From the NCBI GenBank assembly GCA_030390025.1, contig CM059432.1:186001-250000 (forward strand): DNA of 64,000 nucleotides. The letters run 5' to 3'. The notes beneath the pieces are model-generated. The model was not told the DNA's origin. It worked only from the letters and a program-made list of their open reading frames with translations, and did not search any database. Origin of the DNA: Squalus acanthias. Its lineage: Eukaryota. Each line of letters begins with the position of its first letter. Positions within the stretch are counted from its first letter, which is position 1. Made by a program: the position numbers and the translations under genes. Shown here in pieces: positions 5,930 to 8,714 of the stretch.

Positions 5930-6967
5930 TCAAATTCTGTGAAGGCGGCCATGAGCTTTTCCCAACGGTGGGAGGGCACCGACCCCTTCCTTTGATCTGC
6001 CGCAGCCTGTCGCTGCTGCGCTGTGACTGGGCTCTCCCTGGGCTGCCTTAGCCTTGAACCTACGCCTTGGGACACTCTGGGGACTTGACCATACCTTCCT
6101 GGGCTGGGGTGTCCGACTTGACCTACGGGGGGCTACCGGGGGCAAGAACTCCAGGACCGACGGACCGGGTTTCGAGACTTCCACCGTCGCGACCTGTGGT
6201 CCCACCACAGCCGCTGGCTCCGCCTCCCTGAACTCGGGATCTGCAGTCTCTGGCACCGCCCTACTTGGCCCAGTAGGCGGCCCTTCACTCGCAGTCCCTA
6301 CCTCCCCCGAGGGCAAGACTTCCAAGGCGGACGGACTGGGTTCTGAGACTTCCATTGCCACGTCCTGTGGTCCCACCACAGCCGCTGGCTCCGCCTCCCC
6401 TAGCTCCGCCCCCCTGAGTTCGGGACCTGCAGCTTCTGCTTCCACCCTGTGTGGACCTCCACTCGCAGTCCCTATCTTCCCTTTACTTGAATCGGGGGCG
6501 AACCTTTCGTCCTCCGATCCCAGCTCCTCTTCGCTCGGGTCACTATCTTGGTCGAGCTCCTCGAACTCTTCCTCATCTGACTCCCAACCCCAATAAGGGA
6601 TCCTACATTTTGCTAGGATGTCCTCTCCCCTGATGCAAGCTGCTTTGCCAGCCTGCGTGCCCTGCGGTCCTACCCGGGGCTGAGAGTCCCCACTCGCAGG
6701 TCTGGCCCCTCCCCTAAGACAGGCCACCGCCCCTGCTTGTTTCTGTGAAATCTCACCTGCTGGAGGCTGCAGATTTCTATCCTGTTTTATTTTGAGCAAC
6801 TCTGCTACGATGGCTCTAAGCTGCCCTTCTAGCCCATCTACCTTCCCCATTAAACGGGTGTTCTCCTCCCGTAAGGCCTGCTCTTTTAACCTGGCCTCCT
6901 TACAGGAGACCCCCTCCTGTGCGTGTCTTTCAAGGGGACACAGGTAGGCAGGCTGCACCGGTTCCAG
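5930..6967 (-). CDS. ORFX: non-enzymatic ORF in the pol position, in frame with gag across a TGA-CTG stop
   Basis: ...GAC TTC TGA CTG GAA CCG GTG CAG..., open for ~345 codons; coiled coil, acidic tract, ~58-aa internal duplication, basic C-terminus; no D(S/T)G, YxDD, RNase H or integrase motifs. Confidence 0.6.
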   Translation of the reverse strand: MEPVQPAYLCPLERHAQEGVSCKEARLKEQALREENTRLMGKVDGLEGQLRAIVAELLKIKQDRNLQPPAGEISQKQAGAVACLRGGARPASGDSQPRVGPQGTQAGKAACIRGEDILAKCRIPYWGWESDEEEFEELDQDSDPSEEELGSEDERFAPDSSKGKIGTASGGPHRVEAEAAGPELRGAELGEAEPAAVVGPQDVAMEVSEPSPSALEVLPSGEVGTASEGPPTGPSRAVPETADPEFREAEPAAVVGPQVATVEVSKPGPSVLEFLPPVAPRRSSRTPQPRKVWSSPQSVPRRRFKAKAAQGEPSHSAAATGCGRSKEGVGALPPLGKAHGRLHRI

Positions 6968-8714
6968 TCAGAAGTCCGGGTTGCCTGGGGCTGTTGCTAC
7001 CTTCCCGTGCGAAATCATGAGAGACCGCATGGCTCCTAACATTGATTCTATCGCATCGGGATGGATAGGCACACCAGCTCCTCTCTCAGAGACAGGCGCT
7101 TGGGTTCGGGCTGCGGGATTTTTATCCCTGGAGTCCTTCCAGGGGTTCCTGCAGTTTTTTCGCCAGTGACCTGTCTTTCCGCACCCGTAACAGACACCAC
7201 TGGCCTGTGGGGCGCGGTTTCCCTCCTGATGCCACTCCCTTTGAGCCGGGGCTGTGGGCCGTGCCTCATGCACCTTTCCCTTAAGGGGACGCGCTCCCGT
7301 GCTCCTAGTGTTACGATACCCTATCGTGAGTCGATTTAGGACCGACTCCTCTGTAGTGGCGGGGTTAGTGGGATCAAACCACGCTTTGGCCTGCTCCCTG
7401 ACGGCTGGCAAACTGTTGGCTACTAAACACCTGAGCCAATGAGTTAAACCGACACCGTCCAGATAATTGCGCCCTGGCGCACCTGGGCAGCTACGCTGGT
7501 ATACTGGCCACAGCCTGTCGGCGAAAACCTTCGGGGGTTCTCCCTCCATCTCAACTGTCTGACCCAATCTAATGAACGGACCTTCGTCGTCCGCCCCCAA
7601 CACTTCTAGGACCTCATCCCTTAATTGCTCATAGGTCCTATTTCCCCTTTTGCTCGCGTCAGGAGAGACACTGGAGGATCGAGCTGTCTAAGGAGAACAG
7701 CAGCATTTTAGCCCTTTCCCCATCATCGCAGCCGTTAATGGCTGCGGTCTGCTCTACCTCCCTGAAATGTACGGAAGGGTCGTCTGACTCGGACAGCTTC
7801 CGTACGTGACTGATCATAGCCCTCAGCTGGTGTGCATTGTGCGGCAACACAAGCTGGCTGAGGAGATTCCCCGCTTCCCCACCGTCTCCGTTCGGGCCCC
7901 TCTTGATACCCGTGACCGGACACAGCGGTCCCGGCTTCACTACTACCTCAGGGGGCTGTACTACCTCGGGGACCTCTTCCTCTACTTCTACCACTTCCTC
8001 CCTTACCCAGGTTGCCGAATAGCTGGGTGGCGCGGAGGGCACAGTGGCAAATACCTCCTCTGCTTTGTTAGGTAGGGATTTTTGAAATTCCCCACCCACC
8101 GGCGGCTGGTGTGCTGACGGGCTGATAAGGCACACCATGCCGTGCGCTTTATTCAGGGCCTCTTTAAGGTTCCCTATCTCTCTCTGGCAGACGCCGTGGT
8201 CGGCCCCCTCATGTTTATCTTCGAGGGCCATTTTATATGCCGTCCTAACTCCCTTTAAGCTCTCTTCCAGGGCTTTTATTTGAGCAGCTAGGCGGGCACA
8301 TCGTTCCCTGATTCTGCCCTCATTTAATTTTGCCTCAGTGACCTGGCACTCGAGGTAATCTATTTTCGCCTCATGGTGGTTGGCGACTAACTGGCGTTCC
8401 TGATGCAACGCATTTAAGGACACGATGAGCTGCTGCCCCCCCACGACCTTTTCTTCCATCTCCACCTCCAAACCCTTGATCTGAGCTGCCTGTGCTACGA
8501 TGACCTGGTCCAAAATCTGGACTTGCCTTTTATAACACATCAGCCAAACCGCATTCTCTACCGATTTTTTGTGTTCTTTGCTACCTGTCCACCTGATGGC
8601 TGCATCTAGCAGACGCTTATCCACCAGCAGGTCGATTATCCATCTCTTAGTCAAATTAACCTTCCGAAAAACATAATCGGCTATTCTCTCTTCCATAACA
8701 TTTCGCCCATTCAT
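6968..8714 (-). CDS. gag: Gag polyprotein, split by a 1-nt frameshift at ~7662-7666
   Basis: ORFs 7659..8768 and 6968..7603 join (ILQCL/PDASKRGNRTYEQLRDEVLEVLG); N-terminal coiled coil, PSAPPSY, capsid-like region with MHR-like GQTVEMEGEPPKVFADRL, zinc knuckle CYGCGKTGHWRKNC (7192-7151); start taken as the first ATG downstream of the PBS. Confidence 0.88.

Follow-up and report, generated by a model that had tools for sequence, protein, structure and literature searches.

Organization of the element and its surroundings

A retrovirus-like element was found on the minus strand between positions ~10392 and 3592 of the window, the 64,000-nt stretch of Squalus acanthias DNA that was analyzed and to which all coordinates refer; its flanks are LINE-like host repeats. 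In the direction of the minus strand, the genes are arranged as leader, gag (8768–6968), a TGA stop codon, an open reading frame designated ORFX (6967–5930), a spacer of ~270 nt, and env from 5657. The following features were recognized.

8800–10392, minus strand: 5′ non-coding part, an LTR/leader candidate, with an AATAAA resembling a poly(A) signal near 8,995
7659–8768, minus strand: 5′ part of gag, with a long coiled coil, PSAP/PPxY motifs resembling late domains, and the start of the capsid
6971–7687, minus strand: 3′ part of gag, with the capsid C-terminal domain and a CCHC zinc knuckle
6965–6970, minus strand: gag stop codon UGA followed by CUG, a hexamer of the alphavirus type UGACUD
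6933–6967, minus strand: ORFX codons 1–12, a junction island common to relatives that differ on both sides of it
6831–6954, minus strand: predicted forked stem-loop of 124 nt, starting at +14, with basal arms at 6954–6930 and 6853–6831
6710–6932, minus strand: ORFX codons 13–86, coiled-coil-like, in the position expected of the pol enzyme domains
5930–6709, minus strand: ORFX codons 87–345, acidic, Pro/Ala/Glu-rich, with a basic tail, homologous to the tail that follows the integrase in the Pol of a relative
3592–5657, minus strand: env-like gene with a hydrophobic N-terminus, an RQRR furin-type site, 9 sequons, and 19 Cys

Neither protease, reverse transcriptase (RT), nor zinc-finger integrase motifs were detected in the three minus-strand frames of the element, and a tblastn search with P0007, the RNase H/integrase protein of a relative, found no pol in it. 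The element is a gag–X–env retroelement without enzyme genes.

The 3′ part of gag matched the zf-CCHC family of Pfam (E 4e-4). It was 61% identical to P0001 from the skate Rhinoraja longicauda and 54% identical to P0002 from a Logan contig, both of which are full-length natural Gag homologs. These homologs point to a cartilaginous fish as host. One long N-terminal helix (residues 69–183, pLDDT about 50–65) was predicted in the model of P0001, and this model, with a mean pLDDT of only 45, could be superimposed on the C-terminal domain of the MLV capsid (Z 12.1, rmsd 2.4, 86 aligned residues). A Foldseek search with the Gag model gave no match at E ≤ 0.001, the top rows being capsids; the Atlas neighbours of P0001 were retrotransposon Gag clusters. 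Scanning of metagenomes for Gag produced 103 pattern matches, none of which was confirmed. In Rhinoraja, Gag of this type is annotated at four or more loci (P0001 and P0004–P0006), with 588 residues in two of them. The Rhinoraja Gag family suggests recent spread or retention and recalls the co-opted Bhikhari Gags of zebrafish.

The PSAP and PPxY motifs overlap at 8040–8020 (minus strand; gag residues 244–250), and a PTAP is located upstream of the zinc knuckle. P(S/T)AP motifs occur twice in P0002 and are absent from P0001. In the element, the late-domain-like motifs suggest budding, in line with the retained env. The gag frame of the window copy is broken near 7,660, a point absent from the initial annotation; ribosomes on this copy would therefore halt before the gag/ORFX junction, and the copy itself is unable to make a Gag-X fusion.

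The furin-type site of the env-like gene lies near 4,679. The env frame is broken near its 3′ end, and the gene is cut at 3592 against the LINE-like host repeat, so that this copy has no transmembrane anchor. The env-like protein received no assignment in Pfam, PDB, or Atlas, and its model had a pLDDT of 32. A YAG at 5671 (minus strand), with a pyrimidine share of 0.65 and 27 AG-free nt upstream, stands 14 nt before the env ATG and is a likely candidate for the env splice acceptor.

A paralogous host segment (15723–16829, 97% alike) continues as host repeat where the element-bearing copy enters env; therefore, the 3′ end of the element, comprising the env anchor and the 3′ LTR, has been lost. 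The outer edge of the element adjoins host repeat at 10393. No clean primer-binding site starting with TGG was seen at 8870–8930 (minus strand), after the likely U5 end; this region may have a split likeness to a leucine-tRNA primer-binding site.

Segmental repeats of 97–98% identity occupy 1–3591, 14670–16829, and 39571–42730, as well as 10393–11293, 13734–14635, and 38097–38999. They represent a tandemly duplicated host unit, and the element is present in one copy only. A short reading frame at 2673–2924 within the duplicated unit is actin-like, as judged by eye. Long tandem arrays with units of ~8–12, 33, and 18 nt were found at 23600–24500, 27050–30700, and 53100–64000, and positions 49070–49569 of the window are a run of 500 N.

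Origin of the reading frame behind the gag stop

The gag gene ends with GAC TTC TGA (6976–6968, minus strand), and CTG GAA CCG GTG CAG CCT follows in the same frame. From here, ORFX is open for 345 codons, up to its own stop codon at 5932–5930. A stop-free frame of this length arose in none of 20,000 base shuffles, and the remaining two frames across the stretch contain 12 and 16 stops. In-frame ATGs do not occur before codon 40 (6850–6848), and the one after that is codon 205. The initial annotation had described a gag TGA in frame with an ORF of ~345 codons lacking a nearby ATG, which is correct, and it had listed an acidic tract, a Pro/Ala/Glu duplication, and an Arg/Ser-rich tail in this ORF, all of which are present: 16 D/E in codons 128–155, a duplication of 93 nt (6136–6228 versus 6307–6399, 85% alike), and 15 K/R in codons 280–345. 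The pattern of the gag/ORFX junction had no matches in viral contigs and a single one in metagenomes (L001); the latter was rejected as a chance match on a GC-rich contig of bacterial type with unrelated ORFs.

None of the 7,997 candidates from the search with full-length ORFX proved to be a homolog comparable in length, and no Pfam family was assigned. An exhaustive search with codons 1–139 retrieved P0003 as its single hit (library-wide E 2.6e-4). In BLASTP, codons 87–344 matched P0003 with E values of 1e-18 and 7e-11; 90 of 207 aligned residues were identical, none of 1000 shuffles did as well, and tblastn of P0003 on the window returned a match at 6709–5936 (E 6e-17). Residues 1–50 of P0003 form the C-terminal SH3-like domain of an integrase: they matched SH3_Tf2-1 (E 0.002, under the curated cut-off) and shared 78% identity (E 3e-27) with the integrase end of P0007, a protein of the shark Heptranchias perlo with RNase H, H2C2, rve, and SH3 domains. 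In P0003, the frame runs unbroken from the integrase into the acidic, Pro/Glu-rich, and basic tail. Since P0003 starts with the integrase domain, the tail is a C-terminal extension of the pol frame in that relative, a link between integrase and tail given by a single protein of a single contig. P0007, by comparison, stops 26 residues past its SH3-like domain and has no similarity to ORFX.

The tail of ORFX is thus, on the evidence of this homology, very probably of pol origin. The description of ORFX in the initial annotation as a non-Pol frame, with readthrough redirected to an accessory protein, is not supported, ~260 of its 345 codons matching the in-frame post-integrase tail of the relative.

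Other copies were compared through short contigs. Part of the stretch was found in 20 runs from 9 studies, and 8 of these runs, with 6 organism codes, were compared; none of the 20 runs is recorded as RNA, and two were taken as RNA by guess. One contig of run X8 and three of run X9 leave the window sequence at 6710, and the homology with P0003 begins at 6709. A contig of 911 nt from run X17 matches the window only at 6933–6976, and one X10 contig also departs at 6933. The two departure points, 6933 and 6710, bracket codons 13–86. ORFX is most likely a pol gene from which all enzyme domains were deleted in frame, with ~70 codons of coiled coil instead, and codons 1–12 are likely the retained pol start. 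The idea that the first residues of ORFX are the start of the ancestral pol, already put forward in the initial annotation, agrees with the observation that relatives share only the junction and ~12 codons, but the places of departure alone do not show what follows in those relatives.

The best match of the coiled-coil stretch was the coiled coil of the element's own Gag, with a score reached by none of 1000 plain shuffles and by 6 of 1000 that preserved the heptads; its similarity to three Gag homologs was not significant (91–137 of 1000 shuffles reached the score). No source of the stretch was found within the window at the DNA level. Codons 64–86 resemble the start of the tail, and codons 13–63 have no established homology with pol. 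The ~70-codon stretch without a counterpart in P0003 is also in frame. A backward joint of 69 nt (23 codons) was seen at 6814–6882, inside the coiled-coil stretch, in four runs with one contig each; other copies may have a duplication here that keeps the frame.

Variation among copies and expression of ORFX

Two comparisons of copies were made. The narrow one, at the junction, comprised 4 runs and 29 contigs (23 listed), with all 23 variant rows seen; the wide one comprised 4 runs with 30 of 30 bins covered in each, and from it the 40 best-supported of 276 variant rows, together with 12 of 30 indel rows, were considered. In the narrow comparison, the 4 runs had no listed variant at 6960–6974 and no indel. 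The gag stop was covered by 8 of the 23 listed pieces; in 5 of these the match extends 23 letters or more to either side, and in 1 it reaches the required 31. X8, X10, and X12 have contigs that agree with the window across the stop yet differ on the gag side; therefore, different gag ends share the same stop. As the initial annotation had supposed, the stop did not arise as a private mutation of this copy. The stop with ORFX behind it is a real feature common to the copies.

Among the 40 variant rows with the best support, out of 276, 10 of 18 ORFX variants were synonymous (expected share 0.24–0.31, p 0.005–0.024), none of these 18 creates a stop, and a similar excess was found in gag (9 of 17). 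In the narrow comparison, only 2 of 12 ORFX variants were synonymous, including 1 of 10 in codons 18–28; pooling gave 12 of 30 (p 0.04–0.17), all these counts being of sites and not of independent events. The ORFX indels listed (12 of 30 indel rows) were mostly +1/−1 pairs, the exception being a gap of one base, apparently unpaired, in an X6 contig at 6116. Unpaired gaps of one and two bases fall in the spacer before env. The frame appears to be constrained, as the initial annotation had expected. Selection on the ORFX frame appears probable from these variants, its signal being moderate and uneven.

The UGA-CUG context obeys the alphavirus-like (type II) rule, in which UGA is followed by CGV or CUD (UGACGV or UGACUD; UGACUG occurs in Trocara virus, PMC13517186). 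The stop had been regarded as leaky from the outset, and it fits this known class. Extended stem-loops of alphaviruses have a length of 126–177 nt and start at +9 to +16 (PMC13517186). Of the short stem CCTGTG/CACAGG suggested earlier, the letters are present, but such 6-bp stems occur in 47 of 164 windows of the element, which is not above chance; the pairs had a probability of 0.0 in a 160-nt context (z −0.3 to −1.7), and the stem was rejected.

The basal helix of the 124-nt stem-loop predicted at +14 (6954–6930 / 6853–6831) had pair probabilities mostly of ~0.9 in two long contexts, and the stem-loop had a z of −2.78 (2 of 200 shuffles) with bounds picked after looking. Values of z ≤ about −2.5 were obtained in only 3 of 20 start/length trials and also, at z ≤ −2.5, in 10 of 164 background windows of the element; a shorter context folds differently. 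The 5′ arm coincides with the conserved junction island. Neither compensatory changes nor covariation were found among the listed variants, one basal pair is lost through a majority variant at 6842, and four of the listed changes disrupt an inner hairpin. The predicted stem-loop is suggestive only. Rfam gave a single match, at chance level (E 0.9).

Taken as a whole, the reading that we somewhat favor from the sequence is that of a gutted pol behind an ancestral UGA-CUG stop, where occasional readthrough would yield a minor Gag-X fusion replacing Gag-Pol; within it, readthrough is the probable, predicted route of ORFX expression. An autonomous relative would have expressed pol by readthrough at the same gag stop. 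A deletion would then have taken the enzymes (protease, RT, RNase H, and integrase), keeping ~12 codons of the pol start and the whole tail and leaving a coiled coil of ~70 codons between them, and the family would have spread with Pol supplied in trans. The ORFX frame may have stayed open since its translation helps the element's own RNA or particle: by analogy with mouse IAP 1Δ1, the Gag-X fusion may assemble alongside Gag and have its effect in cis. Another possible benefit of readthrough is protection of the long RNA against nonsense-mediated decay, which was reported to be inhibited by 1–5% readthrough (PMC5360307).

The main rival of readthrough is splicing in the style of foamy viruses, which we consider unlikely. 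ORFX, as well as the ancestral pol, would be expressed from a spliced mRNA, and the ATG at codon 40 would start a separate protein of 306 residues. The conserved island would then be a branch point overlapping the stop, together with a pyrimidine tract, and the acceptor would lie near 6927; the letters around the gag stop presumably resemble a branch point. With a pyrimidine share of 0.71, the AG that ends at 6927 ranks at the 97th percentile of the element's 600 AGs, and the next ATG past it is codon 40, in frame; however, this AG is preceded by a purine instead of a pyrimidine (non-YAG), and the 39 open codons between the stop and the ATG would be unneeded for splicing. In 10 contigs of the two RNA-guessed runs, no joint or loose end was found at 6927, 6917, or 6953, a weak argument as contigs cannot show absence, and several contigs of these runs cross the junction unspliced. 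The Gag has a CCHC knuckle, unlike foamy virus Gag, which to our knowledge lacks it. In favor of splicing, the solved structure most similar to the integrase of the relative is that of foamy virus (E 8e-34), and foamy virus pol is known to come from a spliced mRNA (PMC3705302).

It is also improbable that ORFX is a neutral relic, its frame being open only due to the in-frame deletion and few master copies, with readthrough and the protein now irrelevant. A gag-like excess of synonymous changes (in the best 40 of 276 variant rows), indels mostly in +1/−1 pairs, the 69-nt joint, a multiple of three, in four runs, and unpaired gaps located in the spacer all argue against this, as do the presence of the element in runs of 6 organism codes and the open frame of the ~70 codons absent from P0003. 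Such a relic would be consistent with an ORFX of low complexity having neither a Pfam family nor a homolog of similar length, with the lack of synonymous excess in codons 18–28, and with a window copy broken in both gag and env. An unrelated accessory gene behind a leaky stop, P0003 being a rare copy fused to integrase, is highly improbable: P0003 is a single contig protein, P0007 has no tail, and codons 13–63 lack established pol homology, but integrase and tail share a continuous frame in P0003, and four contigs (X8 and X9) depart exactly where its homology starts, which would be expected if many copies combine the tail with another upstream sequence. Both the relic and the true accessory gene are less likely than readthrough or splicing.

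A broader reading, which we regard as doubtful, extends the preferred one to a widespread family of shark/skate type, in which Gag-Pol readthrough may have become a switch for a new structural protein, an enzyme-free Gag-X, selected for capturing helper Pol or the element's own RNA at assembly, in a loki-like lineage hidden from RT-based screens of cartilaginous fish. The alphavirus-like UGA-CUG would in that case provide a minority of Gag with a second Gag-like coiled coil and an acidic/basic integrase tail.

Defective retroelements usually let pol decay; here, the enzymes appear to have been dropped, while a probably leaky stop and an apparently constrained frame were kept. The element separates the role of readthrough for RNA or particle from the supply of enzymes, and the question thereby becomes testable. 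If the preferred reading is true, it adds the UGA-CUG context to retroelement readthrough and points to a role for long post-integrase tails. The element also draws attention to a family with env that would escape surveys based on RT.

Comparison with known systems

An arrangement of this kind, with a gutted pol behind the gag stop, was not found in the literature searched, the scope of which left out most subscription journals as well as Repbase and Dfam. Among the known endogenous retroviruses of the elephant shark are relatives of SnRV and of epsilonretroviruses (PMC4422223). With gamma- and epsilonretroviruses, SnRV, SSSV, and ZFERV, the element shares an in-frame stop past the Gag zinc knuckle with a pol frame behind it (PMC13517186); it differs from gamma- and epsilonretroviruses in having UGA instead of the UAG stop (type III) and in the absence of protease and RT after the stop. 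The retroviral contexts given in the part of PMC13517186 that was covered are UAGGGA, UAGGAU, UAGGGC, UGAAGA, UGACGA, and UGAAGU, and UGACUG is absent among them. As in alphaviruses of type II, there is a UGACUG hexamer, that of Trocara virus, and a predicted stem-loop, 124 nt long and starting at +14 (PMC13517186); in contrast to them, the hexamer lies in a retroelement and not at an nsP3/nsP4 junction, and the stem-loop has no covariation support.

The integrase protein of the relative, P0007, is labelled 'NYNRIN-like' in its source, and its best solved match is the foamy virus integrase. NYNRIN is the same gene as CGIN1. The integrase of lokiretroviruses groups with CGIN1, and the markers of this group are an RT in the loki clade, a dual RNase H, and an Env similar to the F protein of paramyxo- and pneumoviruses (PMC7947760). 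Like lokiretroviruses, the element has a Gag with a long N-terminal coiled coil ('smc'), a trait of some members that is not unique to them, and a furin-type Env site without a match to classical retroviral Env families (PMC7947760). In the part of that source covered, loki entries have Gag-Pol as one polyprotein or separate Gag and Pol, readthrough is not mentioned, and lokiretroviruses were found in none of 6 cartilaginous-fish genomes (PMC7947760). Bhikhari elements of zebrafish also lack pol, and Bhikhari-2 lacks env, according to the covered parts of the sources; the Gag of Bik-1 has a glycine-rich patch, and that of the element has CCHC instead (PMC7947760; bioRxiv 2024.03.25.586437). 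In its coiled-coil Gag and in the NYNRIN-like integrase of its relative, the element resembles lokiretroviruses and Bhikhari, although neither the element nor the retrieved proteins contain an RT by which it could be placed.

The closest precedent is mouse IAP 1Δ1, a non-autonomous endogenous retrovirus in which a frame-keeping internal deletion created a new gag-pol fusion; it needs proteins in trans, and the fusion was reported to aid retrotransposition in cis (PMC6466679). A frame-keeping internal deletion of pol probably took place in the element as well, as judged from the homology of the tail, by way of one relative protein, and from the places of departure. In IAP 1Δ1, as described in the covered part of the source, the deletion takes part of gag, a single ORF results, and env is absent (PMC6466679). 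In the element, on the other hand, gag and its stop are kept, every enzyme domain is gone, env is retained, and the fusion would be a minor product of readthrough.
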